From an uncultured Erysipelotrichaceae bacterium (GTDB lineage Bacteria > Bacillota_I > Bacilli_A > RF39 > UBA660): 32,615 bases of DNA. Below the pieces are notes generated by a model. The model worked only from the letters and a program-made list of their open reading frames with translations, did no database searches and was not told the DNA's origin. How positions within the stretch are numbered: the first letter of the stretch is position 1; every line of letters begins with the position of its first letter. Position numbers and translations under genes: made by a program. Shown here in pieces: positions 5,567 to 21,502 of this stretch. The stretch is from NCBI GenBank assembly GCA_902783265.1, contig CACZQJ010000001.1:1-32615 (forward strand), written 5' to 3'.

Positions 5567-5641
5567 TATAATAATATATGAATTTTAGATATCAAGACGT
5601 GTGCCCGGTTATATTGAGTTTGTATTTATTGCATACACCTG

Positions 5642-5854
5642 TTAAGCTGCTGGTATCATATTCATTCCAGTACTTTTTCCTTTTGTTATTTCATAAGTAC
5701 TTATTTTAGTATTATCAAATCCGACACACCAGTTTGTTGAAATACCAGCTGTACCATTTATTTGTAAATTGGTACTAAATGCCGCAAAGCCTACTGCCAT
5801 AAATAATACTAATAAAAGAAGACCTACTATTATATAATTTCTTTTATCTCTCAT
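5642..5854 (-). pseudogene. Truncated TasA/CalY-like paralog (70 aa)
   Basis: Same signal peptide and first strand (MAVGFA|AFSTNLQINGTAGISTNW) as the 164-194 aa paralogs, but stops before the PGD...N.GSL core. Confidence 0.6.
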
Positions 5855-5949
5855 GCTCTATCTCATATTTTCCCTACTTCCTATTATCTAATACTAGTAT
5901 ATCTAAAAAACAAGCAACATTTTCCCTAAATCACTTGTTTTTTTAGTTT

Positions 5950-6483
5950 TTACAATTTAAAGTTATTTCTATATATAGAAACCATCTTAGGACCATAATT
6001 TTTTTCTTTAATCAACTCTAAATTTGTTTCAATTTTTATATTTTCATATTCACAAATAACAATTCCATCATCATTAAGTAATTTTCTCTCTTCAATTACT
6101 CTTAAAGCCTTATTCATAAGTCCAGCTCTATAAGGCGGATCTAAAAATATAATGTCAAACTTTTCATTAGTTTCTTTCAAATATCTTTTATAATCAGCAT
6201 TAATAACATCAATATCGTCATCAAATGACTTAATATTTTCTTTTATAACATCAATAACAAATTTGTTATTATCAACTAAAACTAATCTTTTAGCTCCATT
6301 GCTTATTGCTTCAAGCCCTAGTGAACCACTTCCAGCAAATAAATCAAGAACAGTTGCTTCTTTAATATAACCTTGAATAATTCCATATATTGATTCCTTA
6401 ACCCTATCCATAGTAGGTCTCGTTCCCGGCATATCATAACCCTTTAATTTTTTACCTCTATATTTCCCACTAATAATTCGCAT
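5950..6483 (-). CDS. rsmD: 16S rRNA m2G966 methyltransferase
   Basis: MRIISGKYRG, TRPT.DRVKES, LDLFAGSGSLGLEA.S.GA and DPPY motifs; start placed at MRIISG. Confidence 0.95.
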   Translation of the reverse strand: MRIISGKYRGKKLKGYDMPGTRPTMDRVKESIYGIIQGYIKEATVLDLFAGSGSLGLEAISNGAKRLVLVDNNKFVIDVIKENIKSFDDDIDVINADYKRYLKETNEKFDIIFLDPPYRAGLMNKALRVIEERKLLNDDGIVICEYENIKIETNLELIKEKNYGPKMVSIYRNNFKL

Positions 6484-6510
6484 TAAAATCACCAATATTA
6501 TTTTATCACA

Positions 6511-6732
6511 CTATTTAAAAGCCTGCATAATTTTTTCTATTGTTTCAAAAGTATTAAAAATATTTTCTATTTTATCTGCCTTAGTAAGACGATATGTTTT
6601 TTTTACCTCTTCCTCAAACTTTCTAAAATTATTAGAATCTCTATTTAATAATTTATACCAATAAGAATGTGATCTTAAATATCTTAAATAATAAGGGTTC
6701 TCCCTTATTTTAAATTGAATAGGTAAAATCAA
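6511..6732 (-). CDS. ylbE: YlbE-like protein
   Basis: YLR..SYWYK.L.R motif, 73 aa, located between ylbD-like gene and rsmD (B. subtilis order ylbD-ylbE...ylbH). Confidence 0.75.
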   Translation of the reverse strand: MILPIQFKIRENPYYLRYLRSHSYWYKLLNRDSNNFRKFEEEVKKTYRLTKADKIENIFNTFETIEKIMQAFK

Positions 6733-7073
6733 TCTTCAAAATGTTTATAAATTGGTCTTGGTTTATATTCTTCGTTATTGGTATGAGATTCATTATTCTT
6801 ATTTGACATATCTTGAAATAAACTTATCACCCTCTGCATACTATTTACCCCAGATTGAATACTATCCAAATCTAAATTTTTAATATAATCAAAAAGGCCC
6901 AAACTAGCACCGGCCGAACTAACCGTTAAATAATCTTGCCAAGCATTTTCATCTTCACCATACATATCGTAAATTTCATAAAATTTTTGCCACGTCATTG
7001 TACCATTTTGAACATATTTTAAAAGTGATGGATTATTTTTAACAAACTCTTTAAACTTTTCTTTAGTATTCAT
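6729..7073 (-). CDS. ylbD: YlbD-like spore coat-associated protein
   Basis: FKEFVK.NP.L...V..G..TWQ.FYE.Y...GED...W..Y pattern; ATG 7073 after AGGTGA; 4-nt overlap with ylbE. Confidence 0.78.
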   Translation of the reverse strand: MNTKEKFKEFVKNNPSLLKYVQNGTMTWQKFYEIYDMYGEDENAWQDYLTVSSAGASLGLFDYIKNLDLDSIQSGVNSMQRVISLFQDMSNKNNESHTNNEEYKPRPIYKHFED

Positions 7074-7128
7074 TACTATCACCTACACTAATATATGTAT
7101 TTTATATAAAAAAAAGCACAAAAAAAGA

Positions 7129-7623
7129 TTATGCATTTTGAACATAATCAAGTTTAACCGTAAGTGAAGCATTTAACGTCGCAGGTTGGCTAGTAACATC
7201 TTTATCGTAAGAAACCTTAACTGTAAAAGTATGAGTATCAGAAGCTTCCAAAATATCACCTTCATTAATACCACTAGTTTCAAAAATAATTGCTGGATTA
7301 TTAGAATCAGTTAAAGTAATTTTATCAACTTTTGCATCTAAAGTACCACTATTTTTAACTGTTACATCATAGGTCATACTATCACCAGGAGAAACTAAAG
7401 TTGTTTTAAATGTAGCAGAAGTCTTAGTATAAATAGGCGCTGAAGTGTCAGAAGCACTTCCAACCTTGTCTTTACTAACTATATTTATAATTTCAACATC
7501 CCACTTACTATCAATACGAGCAGTTCCATTAATTGTTAAATTAGTACTAAAAGCTGCGAATCCTACCACAAGTAAACATATAATTACAACTAAAATACCG
7601 ATTATTATATATTTCCTTTTCAT
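7129..7623 (-). CDS. TasA/CalY-like secreted fibre subunit with SipW-type signal peptide (164 aa)
   Basis: VGFA|AFSTNLTINGTA..W, core LVSPGDSMTYDVTVKNSGTL, C-terminus LDYVQNA. Confidence 0.7.
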   Translation of the reverse strand: MKRKYIIIGILVVIICLLVVGFAAFSTNLTINGTARIDSKWDVEIINIVSKDKVGSASDTSAPIYTKTSATFKTTLVSPGDSMTYDVTVKNSGTLDAKVDKITLTDSNNPAIIFETSGINEGDILEASDTHTFTVKVSYDKDVTSQPATLNASLTVKLDYVQNA

Positions 7624-7689
7624 AATTTCACTTACTTTCCTAAATATATTTTAACATCTATACACCGTTTTGTAAATAAAAAAGCTCTA

Positions 7690-8340
7690 TTAACTAGAAC
7701 TCTTTTCACTCATAGAAGCCACTTCTAACTTTTTATCATTATGAATAATAACTAAACTTCCTGAAGTTTGATAGCCCAAATCTTCCTTGTAAGTAACTTC
7801 AAAATTAACAACATATGCTTTTTCATCAATAAAATCGCCATATTTGAAAGATTCAGTTTTTACTTTTTCAACATCAACACTAGTAACTATTGGAAGATCT
7901 TGATTTCTATTATCATAAACATTACTCTCAACACTTTTGTACATTGAATCCATCGCATATTTAACAAAATCATCACGATACTTTTCGTACACAAATTGCT
8001 TTCCACCAACATCATTTTTGTTTAATTTATTATCCAAATTAAAGAAATCTGCCACAAACATTTGTCCAACCAAAGTCATATAATCTTCTTCAGAAACTTC
8101 TTTACTGTCTAAAGCTTTTTCTAGTTTTTTAAACAAATCCTTATAATACGAAGTAGCATTTTCTTTTAAAGTATAGCCGTATTCACTAATTGTTGAAATA
8201 TTTTTAATTTCTTTAACAGGTGCTTTTTTAACATTCAATTTTTTATAAGCAAAATATCCGCCAAAAGCAAGTAAACAAATTAAGAAAAGCAACACTAAAA
8301 TTCGGCCAAATCTAATTTTTCTCTTTCTTTTTTTTGCCAT
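7690..8340 (-). CDS. Hypothetical membrane-anchored protein
   Basis: Very basic N-terminus, single TM helix, 216 aa; starts 3 nt after the LTA synthase stop, so probably co-transcribed. Confidence 0.75.
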   Translation of the reverse strand: MAKKRKRKIRFGRILVLLFLICLLAFGGYFAYKKLNVKKAPVKEIKNISTISEYGYTLKENATSYYKDLFKKLEKALDSKEVSEEDYMTLVGQMFVADFFNLDNKLNKNDVGGKQFVYEKYRDDFVKYAMDSMYKSVESNVYDNRNQDLPIVTSVDVEKVKTESFKYGDFIDEKAYVVNFEVTYKEDLGYQTSGSLVIIHNDKKLEVASMSEKSSS

Positions 8341-8343
8341 AAA

Positions 8344-10389: not shown

Positions 10390-10474
10390 ATTTCACCTCA
10401 TACTTTAAATATTATAACACTTTTTACCCAGAAAAAAAAGTAGTATGAGCTACTTACATTAAACATATGTAAAC

Positions 10475-10517
10475 CAAAAAACAATATTAAAAAGTGATTA
10501 ATATCACTTTTTAATAT
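10475..10517 (-). terminator. Long intrinsic terminator
   Basis: Perfect 15-bp inverted repeat atattaaaaagtgat (10484-10498) / atcactttttaatat (10503-10517), followed on the minus strand by TGTTTTTT. Confidence 0.7.
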
Positions 10518-10611
10518 ATACCTTGTAATACTTTTTAGAATTCTCAAACAAGAAAACATGAAGTACTAGTAGTCTGAGGTAAGTACATATCAGGTAACAA
10601 ATATGTACCCA

Positions 10612-11454
10612 CTAACTATTTTTCTCACCCTTCACATTTTTATACTTATTTTTATATGCTAAATATCCTTCTGCATTTATTGCAATACCCATCACAAATA
10701 TAAATGAAAGCATATAAATCCAAATCATCATTACTATAATTCCAGATAAACTGCCATAAAACAACGAATAATTGGCAAAATTAGAAACGTAATATGAATA
10801 TACAAAAGTGGTAATAATCCATCCAATAGTAGTAAAAAATGCTCCTTTATTCATAAAACTGCTAGAAATTTGCTCATCTGGAGCCATCGTATATAAAAGC
10901 TTTAAAATCCAGAAAAATAGCACAAATGCAAGTGGCCATTTTATTAAAACAAAAATAACATATATTTTATCCCTAAACTCTAATAAAAAGTCCAAATTAA
11001 GAATATAATTTAAAATTACATTACCGTAAGCTAATACAACTAATATAAAAATAAATAGAAAAAGTAAAATGAAAATCATAAAAAATGCTTTTATTCTTCT
11101 CTTAATATAATCATCATATTCAATACCAAATAGTTCATCTGATGTAATAATAATTGAATGAGTACCATTAGAAACTAAAATAAAACCAACAATCATAACA
11201 AACGCAATATTACCAGAAATATTACTACCATCTAAAAAAGGAAGTAATATTTTTGTAAAATTGCCAGGAATTACTTTTTCTATTATTTCAACAAAAGGCA
11301 ATGATAAAAGGGTTATTTTAGAAACAATATAACCAAGTAAAGTTAATAACGGAAAAATAGACAAAATTAGAAAATATGCAAGTTGCCCAGGCAATATTTT
11401 CATCTCTGGTCTCATTATAATATCATAAATTCTCTTAAAATAACCCTTTAACAT
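10612..11454 (-). CDS. YihY/virulence factor BrkB family membrane protein
   Basis: LAYFLILSIFP, LY..AP, F.NYSLFYGSLSGIIVMMIWIY and G..IN motifs; multi-TM. Confidence 0.9.
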   Translation of the reverse strand: MLKGYFKRIYDIIMRPEMKILPGQLAYFLILSIFPLLTLLGYIVSKITLLSLPFVEIIEKVIPGNFTKILLPFLDGSNISGNIAFVMIVGFILVSNGTHSIIITSDELFGIEYDDYIKRRIKAFFMIFILLFLFIFILVVLAYGNVILNYILNLDFLLEFRDKIYVIFVLIKWPLAFVLFFWILKLLYTMAPDEQISSSFMNKGAFFTTIGWIITTFVYSYYVSNFANYSLFYGSLSGIIVMMIWIYMLSFIFVMGIAINAEGYLAYKNKYKNVKGEKNS

Positions 11455-11471
11455 AAGCCTCTTCCTTAATC

Positions 11472-13499
11472 TTAATTATTTACCTCTTCTTTATTGCTAC
11501 GCATATCAATAGTTGCTTCATTTATCGCATCATCAATAGTTTTTATTTCATCATTTATCATACTATATCCGATTGCTGCTCCAAATCCATGTGAAAGTTC
11601 TTTAAATTCTTTATTTAACTTACGCATATATGTAACAATTGTTTTTTCATCATGACCAACTGTAAATACTAAAAATTCATTTCCATCAGTTCTGACAAGC
11701 TCACTATCACTAAGCTGATTATTAATTAATATACTAGCACCTTCAATAATAACCTTATCCCCTTCAGCATGGCCAAAATTATCATTAATATATGCTACAT
11801 TATTTAAATCTATAATTATAACCGCTTGTGGGTATACTTCGCTATTGTCCCACTTACTAATATTATCATTTAAGTAATCTCTATTTTTAAGAGATGTCAT
11901 TGAATCAATATAGCGTAGTTTGTCAGCTTTAGACAATTTGAAATCATATGTCTTACGGCGTTTAAAAATTTTAGCAGCTAAAAATATCGTAAACGAAATT
12001 AAAAGAATAACAAGTGCACTTAAAATAGTTTGTAATAAAACAATACTATTATTAGAATTTAAAATACCTATATAACTATCATTTATAACATCATTAGTAT
12101 CTATAAAAGATAAATAGAAATTTAAAAATTCATTAAACACTTTATTACCACTAATATCTCGTGTCAAAAATCCATAATCACGCTCAAAATCCAAAACACC
12201 CAATTTTTTAACATCACTAAATTTAGATCTTACATAATAATCATAAGTATATTCATCAATTGCCGCTATTTTCAAGCCCTTTAAATCATTTAGTAAAGAC
12301 CTAGAATCATCATAAGAATTAACTTTAATGTTATTTTTCTTTAAATAATTTTCTATATAACTATTTTTAACAGTAGAAACAGTCTCGCCATTTAATGAAT
12401 AAATATTATTAATAGTCAAATCAGAATTATCTTTAGTAACTATCACTACTTTATTATTATAAACACCTACAGTATTTAATACATCCATATTAAATTTAGT
12501 TGTACCATTATCACTAGAAATAATATCCAAACCATTCTTATTAAAATCATCAAGAACATTATCAATTGATGAATATCTTTTAAATTCCACTTCCACATTA
12601 GCCATATTAGCAAATTTTTTTATAAATGAATAATTAAGTCCTTTTAAAGAACCATTTACATTCACTTCGAAAGGCGCATTCAAAACAAAACCATATTTAT
12701 ATCTTTTACTTCTAAAACTAGCCTGTTCTTTTTCATCAATATTATTAAAAGTAAAATAACTATCCATTAAATATTTATTCAAAGATTTTTGATATTTTTT
12801 GTTTTTATAATTTTTAAAATATTTAACTAAAATTTTATTTAATTTTTTATTATTTCCTAAAGTAATTACATAATTTTTATTATACTCAGTAATATTATAA
12901 GCAATATTTAAATCATTATTTAAAATTATTTCCAAATAATCTAATTTAGGTAAAACAACACCATCAATGTTTTCGTTTTTAACATCAGTAATCATTTCAT
13001 CTTCGGTTCCATAACCTTTATAAGAAAGATTACTACTGCCATTTAAATAATTACCAACCTTAGTTAAATCATTATTTAAAACCCCAATACGCAAATTTTT
13101 AAGATCCGTAACACTAGTATAGTGTAAATTCTTTTTAGTTACTATAACATAATTATCTTGATATAATAAAATGTCATCCTTAGTATCCTCTTTAATAGCT
13201 AAAGCATATTCAGAGTTTGTTTTAGAAGATTTATTATAAGGTAACTTATTAATTTGTAAACCCGTATCCCTTTCTAAAGAATCAAAAAAATCAAATACAA
13301 TTCCATTACCACTATAGCTAACTATTGGAACATCACTTAAAACAGCAACATCTATTACTTTATCTTTATTATTTTCAATCCATCTTTTTTCAATAACAGT
13401 AAGAGATGTTTTTTTATCTTCATTTGTAAAAAAATATACACCAAAAGCTATAATAATAACAGCTAAAACTGCAATAACAACTTTCCATTTTTTATCCAT
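11472..13499 (-). CDS. Membrane sensor: extracellular solute-binding-like domains plus degenerate GGDEF domain
   Basis: N-terminal TM, two repeats resembling family-3 solute-binding domains, second TM, then DSMTSLKNR, IDLNN..YINDNFGHAEGD and RTDGNEF in place of R.GGDEF. Start placed at MDKKWK after AGGTGG. Confidence 0.8.
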   Translation of the reverse strand: MDKKWKVVIAVLAVIIIAFGVYFFTNEDKKTSLTVIEKRWIENNKDKVIDVAVLSDVPIVSYSGNGIVFDFFDSLERDTGLQINKLPYNKSSKTNSEYALAIKEDTKDDILLYQDNYVIVTKKNLHYTSVTDLKNLRIGVLNNDLTKVGNYLNGSSNLSYKGYGTEDEMITDVKNENIDGVVLPKLDYLEIILNNDLNIAYNITEYNKNYVITLGNNKKLNKILVKYFKNYKNKKYQKSLNKYLMDSYFTFNNIDEKEQASFRSKRYKYGFVLNAPFEVNVNGSLKGLNYSFIKKFANMANVEVEFKRYSSIDNVLDDFNKNGLDIISSDNGTTKFNMDVLNTVGVYNNKVVIVTKDNSDLTINNIYSLNGETVSTVKNSYIENYLKKNNIKVNSYDDSRSLLNDLKGLKIAAIDEYTYDYYVRSKFSDVKKLGVLDFERDYGFLTRDISGNKVFNEFLNFYLSFIDTNDVINDSYIGILNSNNSIVLLQTILSALVILLISFTIFLAAKIFKRRKTYDFKLSKADKLRYIDSMTSLKNRDYLNDNISKWDNSEVYPQAVIIIDLNNVAYINDNFGHAEGDKVIIEGASILINNQLSDSELVRTDGNEFLVFTVGHDEKTIVTYMRKLNKEFKELSHGFGAAIGYSMINDEIKTIDDAINEATIDMRSNKEEVNN

Positions 13500-13959
13500 T
13501 ATTGCCACCTGCAATTCCATAATTTACACTATCACTGCTTTTACTCTTATAACCAATTATTGGATATTGCTCACTTTTTTCATCAGAATCAATAAATATT
13601 TGAATATCATAATATTTTTGATCATCTTTACTTATTTCATTTATAATACTACCTGCAAATTCCTTGGCCTGATTAACGCCAAAATTACTATCTACAGTTA
13701 TTGTAAAATTCAAAATTCTTCCTTCTTTGTTATATTCTATTTTAGACACACTGTCATTGTCTTTTGCTTTATCTTTTATTTTAGATATAACCTTATCAGA
13801 AATTTTATGTTTTTTTTCATCCTTTAACCTATCACCATATTTATTACCATTAAAACTAGGTAATATAAATAACCATGTCATAAGTATTATTAAAATAATA
13901 ACTAAACAAATAACTCCCATAATCATTTGTTTTTTATGTTTTTTAATAAATTTTTTCAT
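13492..13959 (-). CDS. Hypothetical membrane-anchored protein (155 aa)
   Basis: ATG 13959 after GTGGTGA; single N-terminal TM; stop overlaps the start of the GGDEF gene. Confidence 0.7.
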   Translation of the reverse strand: MKKFIKKHKKQMIMGVICLVIILIILMTWLFILPSFNGNKYGDRLKDEKKHKISDKVISKIKDKAKDNDSVSKIEYNKEGRILNFTITVDSNFGVNQAKEFAGSIINEISKDDQKYYDIQIFIDSDEKSEQYPIIGYKSKSSDSVNYGIAGGNNG

Positions 13960-13991
13960 TAAAATCACCACTTCCATTATACTATAATTTA

Positions 13992-14354
13992 TCACTTCAA
14001 ACAAGAAGGAGTACATTCATTAACATAAGCATAAACATATTGATTACTTTCAAGCTTTATTTCTACATACCCCCCTAACATCCCGCCTTTAGGATTTACA
14101 GCCTCATTTTCAATATATCCTTCACTAACTAAGTCTGTCACGCTTACACAACAACTACCACTATCAGGCAAATTTGCCGTATGTTCAACACCCCATTCTT
14201 TTGCTGCTTTTTCTACTATTAATTTTTGGCTTTCATAAGCCCTATCTTTTGAAGCATTAATTATTCCCATAACAGATGGATATGCAATAGTTGAAATCAA
14301 GCCAATAATAACAATTACTACTAATAATTCCACTAATGTAAAACCGTTTTTCAT
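13992..14354 (-). CDS. Type IV pilin-like protein (class III prepilin signal), 120 aa
   Basis: ATG 14354 after AGGTGA: MKNG|FTLVELLVVIVIIGLISTIAYP, with L...GYI motif and four Cys. Confidence 0.88.
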   Translation of the reverse strand: MKNGFTLVELLVVIVIIGLISTIAYPSVMGIINASKDRAYESQKLIVEKAAKEWGVEHTANLPDSGSCCVSVTDLVSEGYIENEAVNPKGGMLGGYVEIKLESNQYVYAYVNECTPSCLK

Positions 14355-14376
14355 ATCTTCACCTACCCTATAATAA

Positions 14377-14405
14377 ATTATAAAATAATTGCCAAAATAA
14401 GTCAA
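14377..14405 (-). promoter_or_regulatory. Sigma-A type promoter for the pilin-GGDEF-yihY operon
   Basis: TTGACT (14405-14400), 17-nt spacer, TATAAT (14382-14377). Confidence 0.6.
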
Positions 14406-14423
14406 TTAAGTATGCTCCTTTTG

Positions 14424-14451
14424 AAATTAAAAAGCCAAGATAATCTTGGCT
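14424..14451 (-). terminator. Intrinsic terminator after the DUF5305-like gene
   Basis: Minus strand AGCCAAGA-TTA-TCTTGGCT followed by T-rich tail. Confidence 0.65.
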
Positions 14452-14455
14452 AATT

Positions 14456-15580
14456 TTAAATATAAGTTTTTTCTCTATCTTCACCATAATTAATAGTATT
14501 GAAATGATCAAAATCAGATTCTTTAAGTAAAAACCTATAAGCAGTTTTATCATTTAATATTAAGAATACACATTTTGAGTTCTCTTCAATTTCAAAATAT
14601 ATAATTGGTGAATGAAGTTCTTCTTCGATATCAACCATATCAGTAAAGCTCTTGATATTAACAATATCGTATTTATTTAAATCTGGCATATTATGAGTTT
14701 CTGCAATAATATCGCCATATTCCTTCATAATCTTATTAACAGCTAATATATATTCAGATTTTCTAGTAACCGCAAGTAAACTCTTACCAAGTTTTACAAA
14801 TACTACTAATGAACCTAATAACACTAAAGTACCCACAACAGCTAAAGGAATGTTAATTTCTTTATTTTGATTTGCCGTACTATAAACTGTATTACTGCCA
14901 GTATTTACATAATCTGATTTAACTCTTACAGTTTGAACAAGTAAAGGAAATTGTAAACTCATATCATATTTTTCTTGTAAATTTTTCTCAGTTTCACCCT
15001 TAAGACCAGCCGAAATATTAATATTCATAGTCAAATCTACGCGAGCATCAACTGAAAGTCCAAATTGATTTCGGAAATCGGCAAGGACTTGATTATAAGC
15101 ATTATAATCTAAATTAACAACTTTATCAATAATAAATTGTTTTCCAGTACCATTCATTGTTTGCATAGCTAAAATAGGATACTCTTTAGACCAAACATCA
15201 ACCTTTCGTCCATCAGAATCTTCGCCTAATCCTCTAGCAGTAGCTACAATAGAATAATTATAAGTATAATCCAAATCCTCAGTACTGTGGAATTCAAAAT
15301 TTGGTTGAACTTCAACATGATCAATTATTGAGGCAATATACTGCTTATTCATTTCTAAATAAGGAGCCGTAAAAAAGCCGTTATTTTTCAAGTAAACTTT
15401 ATAATCCATTTTAGAATTATAAGTATAAGAATAAAGTTTTTTCTTAGCACTAGCTTCAGGATTTACAGCCTTAACAATAGAAAAAATCGAAACAGCCATT
15501 ACTGCAATAACTATAAGTAGTAAAAAAACTCTAACCCATTGTTTCAAAATTATTTTATTTTCATCTTTTTGTCTTTTCAT
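14456..15580 (-). CDS. DUF5305-like two-TM membrane protein
   Basis: N-terminal TM, beta-rich extracellular region, second TM, cytoplasmic tail EYGDII...IVNIKSFTDMVDIEEELHSPII, which I recall as the DUF5305 C-terminal pattern; 15 nt downstream of the signal peptidase. Confidence 0.65.
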   Translation of the reverse strand: MKRQKDENKIILKQWVRVFLLLIVIAVMAVSIFSIVKAVNPEASAKKKLYSYTYNSKMDYKVYLKNNGFFTAPYLEMNKQYIASIIDHVEVQPNFEFHSTEDLDYTYNYSIVATARGLGEDSDGRKVDVWSKEYPILAMQTMNGTGKQFIIDKVVNLDYNAYNQVLADFRNQFGLSVDARVDLTMNINISAGLKGETEKNLQEKYDMSLQFPLLVQTVRVKSDYVNTGSNTVYSTANQNKEINIPLAVVGTLVLLGSLVVFVKLGKSLLAVTRKSEYILAVNKIMKEYGDIIAETHNMPDLNKYDIVNIKSFTDMVDIEEELHSPIIYFEIEENSKCVFLILNDKTAYRFLLKESDFDHFNTINYGEDREKTYI

Positions 15581-15595
15581 ACTATTCTCCCCTTT

Positions 15596-16738
15596 TTACG
15601 AAATTGCACCACTAAGCCATACTGATGGATAACCAATAAATGGTACAACAAACATTACTTTTCCTTTCACATTTTCAAGATGGGCTTTATCAACATCTAT
15701 CGTATTATTATGATCACCTTTAGTAATAAATAATTTATTACCATAATCATCATTAGTAATCTCAACTATCCTATGGATAACATATTTACTACCGCTTACA
15801 AACTGAATAACATCTCCAACTTGAAGTAGGTCTTTCTCTTGAGTGTTTATTTTTTTAACAACAACCGCATCGCCTCTATTAAATGTTGGTGACATACTAC
15901 CAGACATAACAGCAATAGGTTGATATTTAAATAAACCCATAACAAATCCAGCAAGAAGTCCAATAAAAACAAATACAGGGATATAAACTACTGGACTATA
16001 TTTTGTTCTTTCCCTTTTAGAAAGCCTTTCAGTTCTATTTACATGAACATAATTCATATAAACATAAACAGCAAGCGGCAATGCCACACCTACAAGTGCC
16101 GTTCCAAACCAATCCAAATCAGGGATAATCGGAACAATAAATGGTGGAATTTCAACAAAAGCTCGGTACATAATTGAAAACTTAGCTCCACCTATATAAA
16201 CAAGATAAGTAAGTATTGCGCTTTCAAGTATTGTTGGAATTAACATAGATGAAACATAAGTAAATCCCGTTTGCAAATCAGCAAAATGATTCAAAAAACC
16301 TGAAAAATTAATATTCAAAGCAGCAAACACAATTACAATCAAAACATAATTAATTCGTTTCTTCTTTTCATTTTTAATTAAGGCTTCTCTCACAAATTCC
16401 TGGAAAAACAAAATTCCAACAAATGACCATAAGTTTCTTAATATACTAAATATTTCTTTTGAATATGGTGTTCTCTCAAACCCAAATATCAATCCGAGTA
16501 AAAAATATATAATAATATATATAATAAGTGTGATCAATAAACTTTGAGTTTTATCTCTTTCGCCTTTTACTCTTAAATTCGTATCATGACTTAAATAAAC
16601 TGCAACGCCACATATAATAATCCAAAACATAGGATTAATAAATTCATTATAATATGGTAAATTCATTGGACTTAAGACAAAAGTGTTAAGAAAGAAGTAT
16701 ATAGTAAGAAGACCATAAACTATTAAATTGTTCTTCAT
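15596..16738 (-). CDS. SipW/Sec11-type (S26B) signal peptidase fused to a polytopic membrane domain
   Basis: C-terminal VMSGSMSPTFNRGD, VIHRIV (His general base) and ITKGDHNNTID boxes of ER-type peptidases; about 265 N-terminal residues with about 8 TM helices. Start placed at MKNNLI after AGAGGGG. Confidence 0.85.
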   Translation of the reverse strand: MKNNLIVYGLLTIYFFLNTFVLSPMNLPYYNEFINPMFWIIICGVAVYLSHDTNLRVKGERDKTQSLLITLIIYIIIYFLLGLIFGFERTPYSKEIFSILRNLWSFVGILFFQEFVREALIKNEKKKRINYVLIVIVFAALNINFSGFLNHFADLQTGFTYVSSMLIPTILESAILTYLVYIGGAKFSIMYRAFVEIPPFIVPIIPDLDWFGTALVGVALPLAVYVYMNYVHVNRTERLSKRERTKYSPVVYIPVFVFIGLLAGFVMGLFKYQPIAVMSGSMSPTFNRGDAVVVKKINTQEKDLLQVGDVIQFVSGSKYVIHRIVEITNDDYGNKLFITKGDHNNTIDVDKAHLENVKGKVMFVVPFIGYPSVWLSGAIS

Positions 16739-16862
16739 GTTATAACCCCTCTTATGAATAGTATTTACCACACTATCCACTACTATAATAAATTATAACA
16801 TAACAAAATGTAATTGACAACGATTTTAAAAATTTTTTTCCCATTTTTACACTTTAAAATAA

Positions 16863-16887
16863 GAAAAAGCTTAATTTTAAGCTTTTT
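16863..16887 (-). terminator. Probable terminator overlapping the stop of the 188-aa TasA-like gene
   Basis: Inverted repeat aaaaagctta / taagcttttt. Confidence 0.5.
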
Positions 16888-17443
16888 GAACATAGTTTAA
16901 AGTCATTAATACTGTTTTTTCAAGTTGGGCTGCTGACGGTTGAGTAGTAACAGCAGGATTATAAGTAGCAGTTACTGTAAACGTATCAGTTCCACCATTA
17001 GCATTTAAATCATCACCAACAGCAATTCCTGAATAAGTGTATAATATTGCATCAGTTGGATTAGTTTGCCCCATAGTTGCATCACTGAACGTAATACCAC
17101 CAGGTCCTAACTCAGCATTAATAGTACCACTATTTTCAACAGTAACAGTATAAGTTACAGACTCAGAAGGTGAAAGTAAAATTGCACTAAATTCAGCCGT
17201 ATAATTATCTTTAACCTCATGTTTTATACTTCCAGCAGTAGTATAAGTAGTCTCTCCATTGCTATAAGTGCCCACTGCGGTCGCAGATGGAGTAATTGAT
17301 TTAATATGAACATTCCATGAACTATTAATATTAGCCGTACCATTAATATTTAAATTAGTAGCAAACGCTGCATAACCTACTGCCATAACTAAAACTATTG
17401 CAAGAAGTACTCCTATTAAAATATTTTTATGCCTTGATTCCAT
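16877..17443 (-). CDS. TasA/CalY-like secreted fibre subunit (188 aa)
   Basis: VGYA|AFATNLNINGTA..SSW, core LLSPSESVTYTVTVENSGTI, C-terminus LNYVQKA; directly upstream of the SipW-like gene. Confidence 0.72.
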   Translation of the reverse strand: MESRHKNILIGVLLAIVLVMAVGYAAFATNLNINGTANINSSWNVHIKSITPSATAVGTYSNGETTYTTAGSIKHEVKDNYTAEFSAILLSPSESVTYTVTVENSGTINAELGPGGITFSDATMGQTNPTDAILYTYSGIAVGDDLNANGGTDTFTVTATYNPAVTTQPSAAQLEKTVLMTLNYVQKA

Positions 17444-17527
17444 ATTCTACCTCCTATCATAAAATCTACCCTAATAAAACTATATCATTTTTTAAAGACT
17501 TAATCAAGATTTTTTTATTATTTTAGC

Positions 17528-17555
17528 AAAATAAAAGACCGCTTATAAGCAGTCT
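17528..17555 (-). terminator. Intrinsic terminator between two TasA-like genes
   Basis: Minus strand AGACTGCT-TATA-AGCGGTCT followed by TTTATTTT. Confidence 0.7.
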
Positions 17556-17567
17556 ATTATAAACACA

Positions 17568-18140
17568 TTATTGAGCTTGACTAGCTACGATAGTAACAGT
17601 AATTCCAGCACTTTCTTCACCAGCTAAACTTGTAACGTTTTCATTTTTGAATTCAGCAGTTACTTTAATAGTAGTATTACCAGTATTAGCAACTAAAGAA
17701 TTACTTGCAGGATTTTCAACAGTAAATTGAATATGTCCAGCTTGACTAGTACAAACATTACCAGTACATGTTGTAGTACCTGTTCCTGAAACACTAGGAG
17801 CTGCTAAAGTTGCAGGTAAACTACCTTCATTTAGAATAGTTAAAAGAAATTCAACTTTATCGCCAGGTTGGTTTAATGTAGCATTAACATTTGCAGTTAA
17901 ATTACCATCATAACCAACAGTTCCTACTGGGGCGTCAGTTCCACCAGTTCCAGTTGTTGGAGTAACAACACCAGGTGCTGTTGTAGTTTTAGAAGTATCA
18001 AAATGTACATTCCAACTTGAATTAATTGTTGCAGTACCATTAATTGTTAAAGTAGTAGCAAATGCTGCATAACCTACTGCCATAACAAATACTACTGCTA
18101 GTAGTGCTCCTATTAACGCATTCTTGTGTTTAGATTCCAT
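17568..18140 (-). CDS. TasA/CalY-like secreted fibre subunit (190 aa)
   Basis: VGYA|AFATTLTINGTA..SSW, core LNQPGDKVEFLLTILNEGSL, Cys pair CTGNVC, C-terminus VASQAQ; strong RBS AAGGAGG. Confidence 0.72.
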   Translation of the reverse strand: MESKHKNALIGALLAVVFVMAVGYAAFATTLTINGTATINSSWNVHFDTSKTTTAPGVVTPTTGTGGTDAPVGTVGYDGNLTANVNATLNQPGDKVEFLLTILNEGSLPATLAAPSVSGTGTTTCTGNVCTSQAGHIQFTVENPASNSLVANTGNTTIKVTAEFKNENVTSLAGEESAGITVTIVASQAQ

Positions 18141-18265
18141 TTTCCTTCCTCCTTATATATTTTTTGCAAGTAGCCTATCTCTACTCTGATACTAATATAC
18201 CATTTTTCTAAATTTAGTTCAAGGATAAAATCAAAAAAAAGAAAAAAATTTTAATTTTTTCTTTT

Positions 18266-19951
18266 TTACATTGCCTTAGGTATACTAATTCCAAGTAATG
18301 AAAGTAATTTTTTCAAAACTTTATTATTAAATGAAAGAACTATATCATAATCATTCCTGATTTTTTCATCAATCCCGTTCATCTTATTAGCCTCATAAAA
18401 GTTATTAGCTATAACCGCAAGTTCATACAAATAATTAGCAATATAATGTGGTTTTCTTTCTAAAGCTGCCTCATTAATCACATTACTTACATCTAATAGT
18501 TTTAATCTTAAAGCCCTATCTACATCATTATAAATTTCAGAAGAAAGATTTCCATCATTATTAGAAAGAAGTTTATTAATTCTTAAATAACTATATAAAA
18601 TATATGAACCCGTTTTACCATTTACTTCACTAAATTTTTTAATATCAAATATATAATTTCTTGTTAAATCATTTTGAAGATCGGCAAATTTAATAATTGC
18701 ATTTACTATTTTATCCAAATCTTCACTACCCATATTTTTATTTTCTTCTCTTAAATTAATAAACTCATCTTTAACCTCTTTAATTAAAGATTCGAGTTTT
18801 AAAGCTCCTCCTTCACGAGTTTTAAAAGGTTTATTATCAGGGCCATTCACAGTTCCATAACCATAATGTTCCAAACTTCCATCATAAATATTTGCTTTTC
18901 TAGTAGCTCTAAAAACTTGCTTAAAATGTAATGCCTGTCTATTATCAGTAACATATATTATTGCATCAGGATTAAAGTCTTTTTTTCTCTGCCAAATAGT
19001 CCCTAAATCAGAAGTTGCATATAAATAAGCTCCATCACTTTTTTGCAAAATAAGTGGTGGAATATCTATTTTATCATCGTCTTCTTTAACATCTATTATT
19101 TTAGCCCCATCGTCTTCCTTAACAATGCCTTTACTTTCAATAAAAGGAATCATTTCTGAAAATTGTTTATAAGAATCAGACTCACCATACCATAAATCAA
19201 AATGAACATCTAAATATTCGTAAAGCCTTTTAATATCAGCAATTGAAATATCACATATTTTTTTCCACAAAATTTTGTAATTTGAATTTCCATCCTGTAA
19301 ATCTTTAGTTATTTTAAGGCATTTGGCTTTTACATCATCATTTTCTTTACATAAAGCACTCATTTCAGGATAAGTTTTATTTAAATAATCTAAATCAAAT
19401 TCAATATCTTTAAAATCAGTATTAGGAAAATCTCTAATAATGCCATAAATAACTTGTCCCATCTGCGTTCCGATATCACCTAAATGTACATCACCTATTA
19501 CTTTATTTCCTTTAAATTTTAAAATATTATAAATAGCCTGGCCAATAATAGCCGTTCTTAAATGCCCAACATGAAGAGGCTTAGCAACATTAGGACCTCC
19601 ATAATCAATAACAATAGTATTATGTTCTTCTTCTATTCCAAACTTATCTTTATTAATAAGCTCTTTTAGCATTTTATTTATAAATTCATCACTGACGCAA
19701 ATATTTATAAAGCCAGGTTTTGCAAGTGTGACACTATTAAAATATAAAGAAAAATCATCCATTTCATTAATAGTTTTTACAATATCCTCGCCAATTACTA
19801 AAGGTGCTTTATGATATTCTTTAGCAAGGCTAAATAAATTATCACATTGAAAATCAACATTTTCTTCTTTAGACTTAACAACTTTAGCATCTACTTCATA
19901 CCCTAGTTTTTTAAAAGCCTGATTTAAAATATCCTCTAATTTTTCTTGCAT
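18266..19951 (-). CDS. argS: Arginine--tRNA ligase
   Basis: PGFIN, DYGGPNVAKPLHVGHLR (HIGH), KSDGAYLYATSDL, FKTREG and Y..LRI motifs; start MQEKLED at 19951 after GGAGGG. Confidence 0.96.
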   Translation of the reverse strand: MQEKLEDILNQAFKKLGYEVDAKVVKSKEENVDFQCDNLFSLAKEYHKAPLVIGEDIVKTINEMDDFSLYFNSVTLAKPGFINICVSDEFINKMLKELINKDKFGIEEEHNTIVIDYGGPNVAKPLHVGHLRTAIIGQAIYNILKFKGNKVIGDVHLGDIGTQMGQVIYGIIRDFPNTDFKDIEFDLDYLNKTYPEMSALCKENDDVKAKCLKITKDLQDGNSNYKILWKKICDISIADIKRLYEYLDVHFDLWYGESDSYKQFSEMIPFIESKGIVKEDDGAKIIDVKEDDDKIDIPPLILQKSDGAYLYATSDLGTIWQRKKDFNPDAIIYVTDNRQALHFKQVFRATRKANIYDGSLEHYGYGTVNGPDNKPFKTREGGALKLESLIKEVKDEFINLREENKNMGSEDLDKIVNAIIKFADLQNDLTRNYIFDIKKFSEVNGKTGSYILYSYLRINKLLSNNDGNLSSEIYNDVDRALRLKLLDVSNVINEAALERKPHYIANYLYELAVIANNFYEANKMNGIDEKIRNDYDIVLSFNNKVLKKLLSLLGISIPKAM

Positions 19952-19954
19952 ATT

Positions 19955-20168
19955 ATCCCTCCATAAAATTAAAAAAATTCCATAAAATAAGGACGGATAT
20001 TTCCGCGGTGCCACCTTAATTCATAGAATTTCTATGCTCTTAAATCTTTAACGCAGATCTGCGAACAAGCTAAAAAGGTGCGTTCATAAGTAAATACTAT
20101 CAGTTTCCACTAAACACTAACTCACTATAAATATTTAATCTTATTACTATTCCTTCGTCATCACTTTG
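19955..20168 (-). promoter_or_regulatory. T-box riboswitch, Arg specifier CGC
   Basis: Antiterminator AAGGTGGCACCGCGG (about 20017-20003), AGTA motif in stem I, specifier loop GAA-CGC-A with CGC at 20082-20080, F-box-like GCGTTA; upstream of argS. Confidence 0.9.
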
Positions 20169-20173
20169 AAATA

Positions 20174-20202
20174 ATTATAAAAAATTATTCATTGTTTGTC
20201 AA
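20174..20202 (-). promoter_or_regulatory. Sigma-A promoter of argS
   Basis: Perfect TTGACA (20202-20197), 17 nt, TATAAT (20179-20174). Confidence 0.8.
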
Positions 20203-20203
20203 G

Positions 20204-20228
20204 AAAAAAGATTACCAAAAGGTAATCT
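20204..20228 (-). terminator. Intrinsic terminator after the TasA-like pair
   Basis: Minus strand AGATTACC-TTTT-GGTAATCT followed by a T run. Confidence 0.8.
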
Positions 20229-20234
20229 ATAAAA

Positions 20235-20819
20235 CTAAGCTTGTGTTGCCGAAAAAGTTACTGCAACCTTTAATTGCTCACCAGAAGCCAAATTTGAAAC
20301 TGTCGTATTTTTAAACTTAGCAGTTACATTAATAGTTGCTGTACCGCCATTTGCTGTTAAACTGGTTTTTGAAAAACTGCCAATTGTGAATTCAACATGT
20401 CCAGCTGTACTTGTACAAACCGTGCTAGTACCACTACCAGAACATGAACCACCACTTGTTGCCGTCATTGTAGGTGTACCCAAAGTTGCTGCTAAACTAC
20501 CAGAATTTTTAACAGTTAAGGTATAAACAACCGTATCTCCAGGTTGATATAAAGTAGCACCTAAAGTTGCTGTAGTATCACCATTAGAATATGCAATAGT
20601 TCCTCCTGAAGGAGCCGTTCCACCAGTTTTACCAATTGTAGTTGCTATAACTCCCGTCCCTGAAGTTTTAGTTGAATCAAATTTAACATCCCAGCTTGAA
20701 CTAATTGTTGCCGTACCATTAATTGTAAGTGCTGTGCTAAAAGCCGCATAAGCTACAGCCATAACTACTAGTACTGCAAGTAGCATTGCTATCATTATAT
20801 TTTTACGATTGTTTGTCAT
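20235..20819 (-). CDS. TasA/CalY-like secreted fibre subunit (194 aa)
   Basis: VAYA|AFSTALTINGTA..SSW, core LYQPGDTVVYTLTVKNSGSL, Cys pair CSGSGTSTVC, C-terminus FSATQA. Confidence 0.72.
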   Translation of the reverse strand: MTNNRKNIMIAMLLAVLVVMAVAYAAFSTALTINGTATISSSWDVKFDSTKTSGTGVIATTIGKTGGTAPSGGTIAYSNGDTTATLGATLYQPGDTVVYTLTVKNSGSLAATLGTPTMTATSGGSCSGSGTSTVCTSTAGHVEFTIGSFSKTSLTANGGTATINVTAKFKNTTVSNLASGEQLKVAVTFSATQA

Positions 20820-21370
20820 TTTCTCTTATCCTTACTTTAATAATTATTAACTAGCTGCTTGAGTAGCAGTAATAGAAACAACAATGCTTGCTTCTTCGCC
20901 ACTAGATAAACTAGTAACAGCAGTATCAACAAATTCAGCAGTTACTTGCATAGTGGTACTTCCATTAGTAGCATTTAAAGTTGAGCTTAATGGACTACCA
21001 ACAGTAAATTTAATATGCCCAGCTGAACTAGTACAAATAAGACCTGAACAATTAGTTGCCTCTCCTGCAGTTGCTGAAGGTGCCCCTAAAGTGGCTTTTA
21101 AACTACCTTCGTTTTTAATAGTTAAAGTAAATACAACTTTATCACCTGGTTGTCTAAGCGTTGCTCTAACACCTGCATGTTGACCATCAGTATATGAAAC
21201 TGTTCCTGATGGCGCAGTTGAACCTCCTGCACCAGTAGTTGGATTAATAACACCGGTTCCTGAAGTCTTTGTTGTATCAAAATGAACATTCCAGCTTGAA
21301 TTAATTGTTGCTGTACCATTAATTGTAAGTGCAGTACTAAATGCTGCATAAGCTACAGCCATAACTACTA
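20691..21370. repeat. Direct repeat: 5' segments of the two tandem TasA-like genes
   Basis: 20691-20770 and 21291-21370 match at 74 of 80 nt by manual alignment, offset exactly 600 nt. Confidence 0.8.
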
Positions 21371-21419
21371 AAGCTCCCAATAACATTGCGATCATCGCAT
21401 TTTTGTGATTGTTTCCCAT
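20847..21419 (-). CDS. TasA/CalY-like secreted fibre subunit (190 aa)
   Basis: VAYA|AFSTALTINGTA..SSW, core LRQPGDKVVFTLTIKNEGSL, Cys pair CSGLIC, C-terminus ITATQAAS. Confidence 0.72.
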   Translation of the reverse strand: MGNNHKNAMIAMLLGALVVMAVAYAAFSTALTINGTATINSSWNVHFDTTKTSGTGVINPTTGAGGSTAPSGTVSYTDGQHAGVRATLRQPGDKVVFTLTIKNEGSLKATLGAPSATAGEATNCSGLICTSSAGHIKFTVGSPLSSTLNATNGSTTMQVTAEFVDTAVTSLSSGEEASIVVSITATQAAS

Positions 21420-21502
21420 AAATAAATTCCTCCTCTATCTTAATTAAACTATAACATAACTTTTTTTTATATGCAACAGCAATTTTAAAACTTTACACAA
21501 AC

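Follow-up and report, generated by a model that had tools for sequence, protein, structure and literature searches.

A probable locus for an AbpX-like donor-strand surface fibre in an uncultured Erysipelotrichaceae bacterium

The 32,615-nucleotide stretch of contig CACZQJ010000001.1 analysed here (the window), from a rumen member of the Bacilli, probably holds a locus that encodes a TasA-superfamily surface fibre assembled by donor-strand complementation, with the AbpX type as its nearest characterised relative. A sequence-only reading had proposed a TasA-superfamily filament served by a dedicated peptidase, and this proposal was supported in silico by a match to AbpX, by a three-copy structural model and by gene linkage across genomes. 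The kinship with TasA that it had drawn stood at the level of the superfamily; the nearest characterised relative was AbpX and not TasA proper, whose curated models gave no match above cut-off.

The six paralogs recognised in that reading were recovered from the ORF list and by alignment, all on the minus strand (Table 1). As had been described, each starts with a basic n-region, continues with a hydrophobic helix and then shows the block AAF.T.L.INGTA.I..W.V, in which A-A-F, T, L, I-N-G-T-A, I, W and V are invariant. The alignment also bore out the motif L..P(GD/SE)...N.G(S/T)(L/I) and the Gln-ending terminal strand (ATQA, ASQA or YVQxA) in the five intact proteins. LPXTG, a C-terminal hydrophobic tail and HExxH were found in none of the 12 family members of the genome, in agreement with the claimed lack of LPXTG or a C-terminal anchor, and no SLH anchor was found in the small paralogs.

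Table 1. Features of the fibre locus in the window.
Feature	Coordinates	Strand	Evidence or remark
Paralog, 190 aa	20847..21419	-	ORF, alignment; subunit taken for three-copy model
Paralog, 194 aa	20235..20819	-	ORF, alignment
Paralog, 190 aa	17568..18140	-	ORF, alignment
Paralog, 188 aa, YVQ-ending type	16877..17443	-	ORF, alignment
Signal peptidase I, ER/archaeal (S26B) type, 380 aa	15596..16738	-	TIGR02228, motifs, hydropathy
DUF5305 protein, 374 aa	14456..15580	-	PF17231, 67.1 bits (cut-off 29)
SBP_bac_3 + GGDEF membrane protein	11472..13520	-	Pfam
Paralog, 164 aa, shortest type, YVQ-ending	7129..7623	-	ORF, alignment
Degraded long-form paralog remnant	5576..5896	-	blastn against contig C11
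70-aa ORF	5642-5854	-	Inside the degraded remnant

Conservation was concentrated just past the putative cleavage site. The mature N-block showed the lowest column entropy; the first 22 mature residues were 64-91% identical among paralogs and the remainder 21-57%. Position -3 was Gly or Ala in 67 of 67 sequences of the wider alignment A2, position -1 was Ala in 66 of 67, and position +6 was Leu in all 67 as well as in the 28 sequences of alignment A4. At the DNA level, a 100-nt 5' segment (family D2) occurred in exactly six copies (61-76% identity), found only at the six paralog starts. The intact mature proteins had a pI of 4.35-8.65 and a D+E content of 3.6-12.8%. For the 20847 protein, a signal peptide was predicted at residues 1-25 with a cut at AYA/AF, leaving 165 aa in the mature form. 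This gene is separated by 27 bases from the 20235 paralog downstream, and terminator-like hairpins follow the 20235 paralog (20228-20209) and the 17568 paralog (17555-17536). RNA-library contigs from three runs and two studies, which cannot prove transcription, lie on four of the five intact paralogs, the peptidase and the DUF5305 gene; they were found on the 20847 paralog, over 20305-20693 of the 20235 paralog and on the 17568 paralog (three runs, two studies; for example 17562-18060, with 6 differences).

Some family members are long forms, made of a paralog module and a C-terminal payload; in relatives, their N-terminal half corresponds to the module of the 7129 paralog. The 70-aa ORF was rejected as a short paralog: it belongs to what remains of a long-form gene, from which two internal stretches are missing when it is compared with a 357-aa gene on contig C11. 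Blastn aligned 5896-5665 with C11 4248-4480 (81%), 5675-5610 with C11 4854-4919 (76%) and 5597-5576 with C11 5388-5409, and the reading frame runs on past the stop of the ORF.

The ER-type signal peptidase and the DUF5305 gene reported directly downstream of two paralogs were confirmed by profile matches. The peptidase ORF (15596-16780) directly follows the 17568 and 16877 paralogs, the latter being the first gene of a paralog-peptidase-DUF5305 unit. It matched TIGR02228 (archaeal-type signal peptidase I) with 94.9 bits for a cut-off of 51.85, and its nearest solved relatives were human SEC11C (E 1.1e-9) and SEC11A (E 1.4e-9). Translation most likely begins at 16738 rather than 16780, because homologs start likewise (379-382 aa). 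Hydropathy analysis indicated that nine hydrophobic segments lead up to the catalytic domain and that one more follows it; the protein carries the motifs SGSMSP (279), IHRI (321) and GDHN (341). The DUF5305 protein, presumed to be an accessory subunit of the peptidase, shows a TM segment (18-36), an outside domain, a second TM segment (244-262) and a cytoplasmic C-domain by hydropathy; a terminator-like hairpin (14451-14433) follows its gene. Since the genome also encodes an ordinary P-type signal peptidase (162 bits), dedicated peptidases of this kind are extra. Of 17 related loci, 12 likewise have an SBP_bac_3 + GGDEF gene on the downstream side. Its product is a possible c-di-GMP regulator of the fibre system, and diguanylate cyclases are described at bacterial AbpX loci in the available part of a preprint (bioRxiv 10.64898/2026.01.04.697558).

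Co-occurrence of paralogs, peptidase and DUF5305 extended across genomes. In the 17 related loci, DUF5305 always lay directly after the peptidase, and at least one paralog was present upstream of the pair in 16. Within the genus, paralogs were found in 24 of 24 genomes and DUF5305 in 23; of 16 sister genera in the family, nine had both and seven had neither, with no discordant case. A paralog lay 1.5-2.0 kb from DUF5305 in 9 of 10 other genomes having both. Family size ranged from 4 to 67 matches per genome of approximately 1 Mb. The window holds one of two such loci in its genome; the second operon, on contig C43, encodes a paralog, a peptidase, DUF5305 and a 528-aa protein with the N-motif, and is only 29-30% identical to the operon of the window. 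Contig C11 carries a separate, canonical TasA-like cluster whose SipW is small (197 aa). On contig C61, a paralog conserved in the genus combines a TM anchor and a body and lacks the donor strand and its motif.

Profile searches placed the family close to AbpX. With a profile built from 28 sequences of 11 genomes (A4), AbpX from Pyrodictium abyssi (PDB 9sj2_C) ranked first among 177,635 PDB sequences (E 2.1e-4, 24.6 bits), profile positions 37-165 aligning with AbpX residues 9-147 of 163, that is, nearly the whole mature domain. Self-complemented AbpX (9rhp) was the second match (E 0.012), and AbpX again came first (E 9.1e-4) with a profile made of 14 sequences from other genera only (A5). The A2 profile matched TasA 5of1 and 8aur with E values of 0.0076 and 0.0083. 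The curated models that the sequence-only reading had put forward as checks were not matched: TIGR04088 found none of the six paralogs, and the best Peptidase_M73 score was 20.4 bits for a cut-off of 22.5, in one of six paralogs (7129). The BsaA model (TIGR04090) reached 15 bits for a cut-off of 60 and the TasA model 12.9 bits for a cut-off of 450. TIGR04088 matched six of seven canonical TasA-like proteins of related genomes. Comparison of the family with canonical TasA-like profiles gave a probability of 93.5%, which fell to 19.8% (E 1.1e-3) once signal peptides were removed.

The resemblance to AbpX includes an amphipathic N-terminal donor strand, in which A10 of AbpX is aligned to A37, and I12 to I39, of the proteins described here. 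According to the available part of the preprint, bacterial AbpX loci resemble the window in having a dedicated signal peptidase I of about ten membrane segments, DUF5305, a number of subunit paralogs, tip-like proteins of larger size and a diguanylate cyclase nearby. Unlike AbpX, the family lacks the acidic, calcium-binding donor-strand residue that is a hallmark of that protein (present in 0/67 and 1/28 sequences), the aligned position being an invariant Leu; position 4 is Thr, Gln or Ser. AbpX has a pI of about 4.0 and a D+E content of about 15%, from which most paralogs differ, and a signal peptide of 54 residues rather than 23-28. The expansion of the family and the absence of any SLH or LPXTG anchor seen are further differences.

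A three-copy complex model of the 20847 protein (mature residues 26-190) put the segment 26-43 from one copy into its neighbour, the N-strand insertion that the earlier reading had named as a check. The score was 0.66, the best of three controls giving 0.00; it expresses likeness and not binding, and may reflect memory of solved TasA/AbpX fibres. In calibration, which used two copies where the model has three, the mark was attained for 20 of 30 proteins whose solved structure is a same-chain pair and for 1 of 23 whose solved structure is a single chain. Runs agreed in at least 77% of contacts, with a partner pLDDT of at least 85. In the model, residues 26-43 are predicted to contact 43-47, 80-91, 95-101, 131-138, 159-163 and 167-187 of the next copy, and the lowest-error residue pairs were 80:31, 82:33, 84:35, 86:37 and 88:39.

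These results bear on the idea that the paralogs act as monomers, Ig-like surface proteins tethered to the membrane: the N-terminal helix would serve as an uncleaved signal anchor, the conserved block as a juxtamembrane stalk and the body as an ordinary, self-complete DUF11/CARDB-type sandwich binding substrates or host glycans. The paralog body gave sub-threshold matches to DUF11, CARDB and DUF7507; giant DUF11-like repeat proteins devoid of the N-motif made up 15 of the best 150 representatives matched, one source labels a homolog 'DUF11 domain-containing protein', and the conserved C61-type paralog is TM-anchored without the motif. We nevertheless consider this unlikely: in 67 of 67 sequences the conserved block comes immediately after a canonical small-x-small site, the family is tied to the dedicated peptidase and DUF5305 in 10 genera without discordance, the top PDB match is a solved donor-strand fibre, and the block is predicted to sit in the neighbouring copy.

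Alternatively, once the dedicated peptidase has cut them, the paralogs could leave the cell and build a secreted matrix lattice or a cell coat, as has been suggested for AbpX networks, instead of forming cell-anchored pili. Such an outcome departs from a surface fibre in final supramolecular form only. The small paralogs have none of the anchors sought (LPXTG, SLH, C-terminal), and in the accessible text on AbpX that protein assembles into para-crystalline lattices, with no anchor identified at the AbpX locus. The acidity (low pI, acidic surface) linked to the AbpX lattice is not general here, with pI values up to 8.65. The genus also has a conserved, acceptor-only paralog with a TM anchor, and the adhesin-like payloads of long forms suggest display on the cell, so that release is rather improbable.

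It is barely credible that the paralogs work as secreted metalloproteases of the camelysin-like (Peptidase M73) kind, or that they are substrates or components of the type IV pilus system to which the prepilin-like gene beside the locus belongs: set against the weak M73 match, the prepilin-like gene (13992-14354) adjoining DUF5305 here and in 13 of 17 related loci, and a reported dependence of Clostridium perfringens Bsa matrix protein secretion on a type IV pilin (available part of PMC11580942), HExxH occurs in 0/12 family members, the same source considers the M73 name a likely misidentification, the paralogs lack the G/FTLxE prepilin motif, a terminator-like hairpin stands between DUF5305 and the prepilin gene, and the loci of G005 and G019 have no such gene.

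The donor-strand fibre was further compared with other known systems. TasA of Bacillus subtilis polymerises by donor strand (PMC9674648, as far as the source was available). As in TasA-SipW-TapA, an ER-type peptidase gene lies beside its substrates, the cut (predicted for the present family) follows a small residue and precedes an aromatic or hydrophobic one, and the proteins have in common the PGD...N.G(S/T)L block and a Gln-ending C-terminal strand. In contrast to that system, the family scores below the TasA, M73, BsaA and TIGR04088 cut-offs, its peptidase possesses nine additional membrane segments and is partnered by DUF5305, the N-terminus of TasA falls after the N-block in the alignment, and TapA gave no match among the 10 locus proteins scanned. 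In haloarchaeal Tafi, the accessible parts of two reports (PMC11821415, PMC12337348) describe the donor-strand pilins TafA/TafE beside a dedicated signal peptidase I (TafD) and DUF5305 (TafG), with several pilin paralogs and variable accessory proteins, and deletion of TafD blocks TafA processing. Tafi differs in its Tat signals and in TafD, which has four TM helices and a second outside domain, and no Tafi protein was among the PDB matches of the family profiles at E up to 10. [quoted passage not shown] Besides the low TIGR04090 score, the Asn of the N-E-K isopeptide triad is described there as facing the core in BsaA, whereas the invariant N34 appears in our model to lie on the face opposite L31, I33, G35 and A37.

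We therefore propose the following mechanism. Each paralog would be exported via Sec with a signal peptide of 23-28 residues, and the ten-segment peptidase with the DUF5305 protein would cut after (G/A)-(Y/F)-A. The new N-terminus, A-F-x-T-x-L-x-I-N-G-T-A-x-I, would form an amphipathic strand whose residues L31, I33, G35, A37 and I39 (20847 protein) would fill the beta-sandwich groove of the next subunit, and would therefore build a head-to-tail polymer in the cell without sortase or chaperone, presumably also without calcium. Because the paralogs keep the strand and vary the body, the small ones may be interchangeable, or major and minor, subunits. Long forms would be tip or adhesin subunits, and the C61 paralog is a candidate membrane-bound base.

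The view that this architecture was undescribed no longer holds, as the January 2026 preprint cited above reports, in its available part, bacterial AbpX loci with a ten-TM signal peptidase I, DUF5305, minor subunits and tip proteins. Collectively, the data favour a recently described, TasA/AbpX-like kind of system that is much expanded here and distinct in lacking the acidic calcium-site residue, in its 4-67 matches per genome, in its payload-bearing long forms and in an acceptor-only, membrane-anchored paralog.

The six open reading frames picked out by the sequence-only reading were found to be real; five of them encode intact proteins (164-194 aa) and the sixth is a remnant. They are carried by a complete contig of 32.6 kb, with a per-kilobase GC content of 19-35% and almost all genes on the minus strand, from an assembly of 0.97 Mb that is 87% complete. 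The layout described for these paralogs was also confirmed. A basic n-region is followed by a hydrophobic helix and an invariant A-A-F.T.L.I-N-G-T-A.I...W.V block, and the five intact paralogs carry P(GD/SE)...N.G(S/T)(L/I) downstream of this block and a C-terminal strand with a Gln end. A 100-nt segment of 5' DNA had exactly six occurrences, confined to these six gene starts. Compared with a 357-aa long form on contig C11 of the same assembly, the remnant has lost two internal segments and stops prematurely, with recognisable sequence persisting past the stop. Searching the assembly with the family profile returned 11 matches.

Location of the features described in the window, in other contigs of the same assembly (G000) and in related loci
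Feature	Location	Strand	Remarks
TasA-like paralog (remnant)	5642-5854	-	
TasA-like paralog	7129-7623	-	
TasA-like paralog	16877-17443	-	
TasA-like paralog	17568-18140	-	
TasA-like paralog	20235-20819	-	
TasA-like paralog	20847-21419	-	
Signal peptidase I	15596-16738		
DUF5305 gene	14456-15580		
C39-peptidase ABC exporter, bacteriocin-type	3470-5479	-	directly downstream of paralog remnant
Membrane protein, SBP_bac_3 outside domain and cytoplasmic GGDEF	11472-13520	-	
Type IV prepilin-like gene	13992-14405, likely start 14354	-	GFTLVE motif; N_methyl 34.8 bits
T-box leader	19986-20170	-	116.3 bits, gathering score 93; upstream of arginyl-tRNA synthetase gene
Promoter-like site, 12/12	20202-20174	-	precedes T-box leader
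tRNA gene	32539-32610	+	62.7 bits; very end of contig
Anchored paralog, C61 type	G000 C61 21071-21781	-	orthologs at L091, L092
Canonical SipW-type cluster, third peptidase cluster	G000 C11 ~17000-24000 (L046)		
PT-HINT long paralogs	L064, L065, L070, L071 (relative G019)		C-terminal PT-HINT autoprocessing domain PF07591
Long paralogs with ~280-residue end domain	L066-L069, L072, L073; G000 C82 1653-2756		

The N-terminal block after the predicted cut is the most conserved stretch of the protein. The small-x-small rule at the cut site was kept in 67/67 genus-level paralogs (profile A2); the residues that follow alternate as F/T/L/I/G/A/I, and Leu at +6 was invariant in both the A2 alignment and that of profile A4 (28 sequences from 11 genomes). 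The I-N-G-T-A motif of all six paralogs places an N-x-T sequon in the invariant donor-strand block. Ser and Thr together make up 24-36% of the mature paralogs, and glycosylation is possible judging from sequence.

The ER-type signal peptidase and the DUF5305-like gene proposed next to the paralogs both passed the cut-offs of their families. The peptidase, 380 aa long, belongs to the ER/archaeal type of signal peptidase I (TIGR02228, 94.9 bits against a cut-off of 51.85) and carries Ser, His and Asp motifs; its best solved relatives are human SEC11C and SEC11A. Hydropathy analysis indicated ten hydrophobic segments, of which nine precede the catalytic domain and the last follows it; in the ESM Atlas, scores for the membrane domain were below 0.9. 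The DUF5305 protein (PF17231, 67.1 bits against 29) has two membrane segments and gave no match against the PDB (E 0.56). A dedicated ten-TM signal peptidase I with DUF5305, the combination described for loci of the AbpX type (AbpX being a donor-strand fibre protein of Pyrodictium abyssi), is therefore found here, with the TM count taken from hydropathy. An ordinary P-type signal peptidase is encoded on another contig of the genome (162 bits), so the multi-segment peptidase is an extra enzyme. Nine terminator-like hairpins were found, against 2.1 +/- 1.2 in shuffled sequences, and hairpins of this kind follow 20235, 17568 and the DUF5305 gene. Based on these positions, the likely transcription units are [20847, 20235], [T-box-argS], [17568] and [16877-SPase-DUF5305].

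The association between the three gene types was conserved among relatives. In 17 related loci found via the peptidase (three of them the same records as L001-L003), DUF5305 followed the peptidase in 17/17, and at least one paralog, and up to seven, preceded it in 16/17. The paralog family was present in 24/24 sampled genomes of the genus and DUF5305 in 23/24, with 4-67 family matches per genome (median 13.5), matches not being copy numbers. Co-occurrence, which the sequence-only reading had made a test of the system, held for paralogs and DUF5305 in the 16 other genera of the family: nine had both, seven had neither and none was discordant. In 9/10 other genomes with both, a paralog lay 1.5-2.0 kb from DUF5305, a gap of about the size of a peptidase gene. 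At phylum level, one draw of 399 genomes gave 13 with DUF5305 above cut-off and 15 with paralog profile matches. These genomes are kin, and the linkage counts are therefore not independent events.

A second complete operon lies on contig C43 of the same genome. It encodes a paralog, a 380-aa signal peptidase, DUF5305 and a 528-aa protein whose N-motif is a variant one, and its identity to the window operon is just 29-30%. In the cluster on contig C11, a 197-aa two-TM SipW-like peptidase lies between proteins with 'SYAWFTANQ'-type signal peptides. Taken alongside the window and C43 operons, this cluster indicates that one genome has signal peptides of two classes and three peptidases of the ER type.

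Existing family models did not recognise the paralogs. The Peptidase_M73 profile (PF12389), proposed as a check, detected only the 7129 paralog, below cut-off (20.4 versus 22.5 bits), and 5/6 had no match at E 0.1. The SipW-cognate signal-peptide model TIGR04088, which spans 34 positions, matched 0/6 window paralogs at E up to 0.1; as a positive control, it matched 6/7 canonical TasA-like proteins of related genomes (best E 5.6e-11). Unlike the SipW-cognate class, the paralogs thus have signal peptides that escape this model. The TasA model NF046066 (12.9 bits against a cut-off of 450) and the BsaA family TIGR04090 (15 against 60) were likewise missed. One hundred close homologs were unnamed or called 'hypothetical protein [Bacilli bacterium]', none with a precomputed Pfam domain. 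In the ESM Atlas, the clusters nearest to a paralog were unnamed and the nearest named ones were Peptidase_M73 (22% of members) and CARDB (50%), both to be taken as leads only.

Profile comparisons with solved structures were more informative than these models. With A2, TasA entries reached E 0.0076-0.0083, and AbpX, at E 0.41, ranked below an unrelated Ig-like domain. A4 is the A2-stage family enlarged with members from ten other genomes, and its top match in the PDB was AbpX (9sj2_C, E 2.1e-4, 139/163 residues), followed by the second AbpX entry. Profile A5, built from other genera only (14 sequences), returned the same order, with 9sj2_C first at E 9.1e-4; by both A4 and A5, the mature domain thus resembles AbpX in sequence. 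Profile A3, made of canonical TasA-like proteins, gave no relevant match against the PDB. Compared at full length with canonical TasA-like proteins, the family scored 93.5%, falling to 19.8% once signal peptides were removed; the first score came mostly from the signal peptide and was therefore set aside as evidence for homology of the body. The N-motif was carried by 127 of the best 150 representatives among the profile matches. Giant matches of 2,000-6,600 aa among these 150 had the N-motif in 0/15 cases and were discarded as unrelated repeat proteins sharing the PGD...N.G block.

Insertion of the N-terminal strand into a neighbouring subunit, as the sequence-only reading anticipated, was reproduced when the mature 20847 protein was modelled in three copies. 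The predicted strand sits in the neighbouring copy with a score of 0.66, against 0.00 for the best of three controls; among proteins of solved structure, 20/30 one-chain pairs and 1/23 single chains reached the mark used for this score. Contact agreement between runs was at least 77% and partner pLDDT at least 85. Residues 26-43 of one copy were placed against 80-91, 131-138, 159-163 and 167-187 of the next, with contacts in register (80:31, 82:33, 84:35, 86:37, 88:39). Donor-strand complementation as in the TasA superfamily is thus found in silico only. Since solved TasA and AbpX fibres exist, the model shows likeness and may draw on memory of these fibres. A BsaA-type isopeptide lock was rejected, as the invariant Asn would lie on the wrong side in the modelled contacts.

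To our knowledge, recognition of donor-strand fibres beyond the chaperone-usher pili dates back only to 2022, and we know of a single characterised member of the AbpX branch (ten-TM signal peptidase plus DUF5305), from a hyperthermophilic archaeon. A January 2026 preprint places AbpX in the TasA superfamily, with bacterial homologs in Bacillota and Chloroflexota, and describes bacterial loci with minor subunits, tip proteins, a ten-TM signal peptidase I and a DUF5305 accessory protein, often accompanied by diguanylate cyclases (bioRxiv 10.64898/2026.01.04.697558). For Tafi, the linked peptidase is reported to be required for pilin processing, and DUF5305 is named as its likely helper (PMC11821415, PMC12337348); for C. 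perfringens Bsa, several TasA-like paralogs are described in each operon (PMC11580942). The architecture of the window, of which the sequence-only reading knew no description, is therefore already known from the AbpX loci of that preprint (bioRxiv 10.64898/2026.01.04.697558).

The window system nevertheless differs from AbpX in several respects. The paralogs lack the calcium-coordinating acidic residue of the donor strand: an invariant Leu occupies the site that aligns with AbpX E4, and position +4 of the mature protein is T, Q or S (acidic in 0/67 sequences of A2 and 1/28 of A4). Most also appear to lack an acidic pI: among the intact five in the window, the mature proteins have pI values of 4.35-8.65 and 3.6-12.8% D+E, against about 4.0 and about 15% for the AbpX clade. 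The aromatic residue expected at mature position 2 in that clade was F in 66/67 A2 sequences, and across genera (A4, n=28) F in 14, Y in 4, L in 9 and I in 1, so this feature is general in the genus and only partly kept in the wider family. The subunit family is also expanded, and its signal-peptide class escapes TIGR04088.

Other assembly routes and neighbouring genes were considered. None of the 12 family members in the genome has an LPXTG sorting signal or C-terminal hydrophobic anchor as in sortase-assembled pili, an absence that the sequence-only reading had noted for the window paralogs; the four sortase genes are all on other contigs. The type IV prepilin motif G|F(T/S)LxE was found in 0/6 paralogs, and N_methyl and TIGR02532 matched only gene 13992-14405. 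This prepilin-like gene comes directly after the DUF5305 terminator and was near the locus in 13/17 related loci, in many cases with a gene of the opposite strand in between; contigs C74, C2 and C17 encode type IV pilus ATPases and a prepilin peptidase. A link was rejected because a terminator-like hairpin sets the gene apart as a unit of its own and because some relatives' loci lack it. A link to the C39-ABC exporter was rejected as well, intact long forms on C11 and C23 having no such neighbour, and a metalloprotease reading fails on the lack of HExxH in 12 family members. The SBP_bac_3 and GGDEF protein was near the fibre locus in 12/17 related loci. The argS gene interrupts the paralog array in the window and in the related loci L052 and L057, but its position in other relatives is upstream of the complete array.

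Near-identical DNA was found in runs of 13 studies, the labelled ones mostly bovine gut metagenomes. Contigs of three metatranscriptome libraries (two studies) fell on four intact paralogs, the peptidase and DUF5305, which can neither prove transcription nor rank genes. No RNA-library contig covered argS in any of the three RNA runs, where missing cover proves nothing; a DNA run covered all 30 bins. Our literature search found no paper joining 'TasA-like' and rumen.

Collectively, the data indicated that these genes form a real, coherent system, and we consider it probable that this is a donor-strand fibre of AbpX-like type, free of the calcium site and equipped with DUF5305 and a ten-segment peptidase of its own.

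Long forms of the family have a 7129-type module in common and varied C-terminal payloads. The PT-HINT domain of the relative G019 scored 68-77 bits in the two long forms scanned; only 9-21 residues follow its closing VHN motif, so no toxin module lies behind. The 87%-complete assembly that includes the window yielded no PT-HINT, and none of the papers listed in our literature search on Hint domains and donor-strand pilins contained the term 'Hint domain'. The ~280-residue end domain has the signature GDGLY..GRY.YKG.NPNNYITFN..WRI and no Pfam or NCBIfam match. A stretch resembling the NPNNYITFN..WRI domain also occurs in an ORF beside the prepilin gene of L001. The C61-type paralog has a long cytoplasmic region of acidic character, a single TM helix and a family body ending INYVQR, without cleavage site or donor-strand block; its orthologs are full-length at 67% identity in two relatives and partial in many more. 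We propose this paralog as a membrane base.

A broader, rather doubtful idea is that the family is a modular plug-in display system based on donor-strand complementation, more than another matrix fibre. Its proposed parts are the membrane-anchored, acceptor-only C61-type paralog as base, a set of interchangeable small subunits, and dozens of long subunits with the same strand and body and different end payloads, among them the unnamed NPNNYITFN..WRI domain and, in a relative, PT-HINT with almost nothing behind. Such a system would be served by a canonical SipW as well as by two peptidase-DUF5305 pairs that are orthogonal to each other, and its assembly would be calcium-independent because the donor strand is hydrophobic. 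If true, it would represent a major investment (up to 67 matches in ~1-Mb genomes) and would permit adhesin or antigen variation in an uncultured rumen lineage, and Hint-mediated covalent attachment or release would perhaps be possible.

About 130 unannotated protein clusters, missed by current Pfam and NCBIfam models, were flagged. The locus places AbpX-type machinery in uncultured small-genome Bacilli of animal guts. The 0.97-Mb assembly also contains a classical SipW cluster and another, divergent copy of this machinery, and in some relatives the subunit family takes up a visible part of the genome. The locus provides a compact gene set of mesophilic origin for probing the roles of the ten-TM peptidase and DUF5305, and for asking whether the signal-peptide class sets which peptidase cuts which subunit and how donor-strand fibres anchor without sortase.
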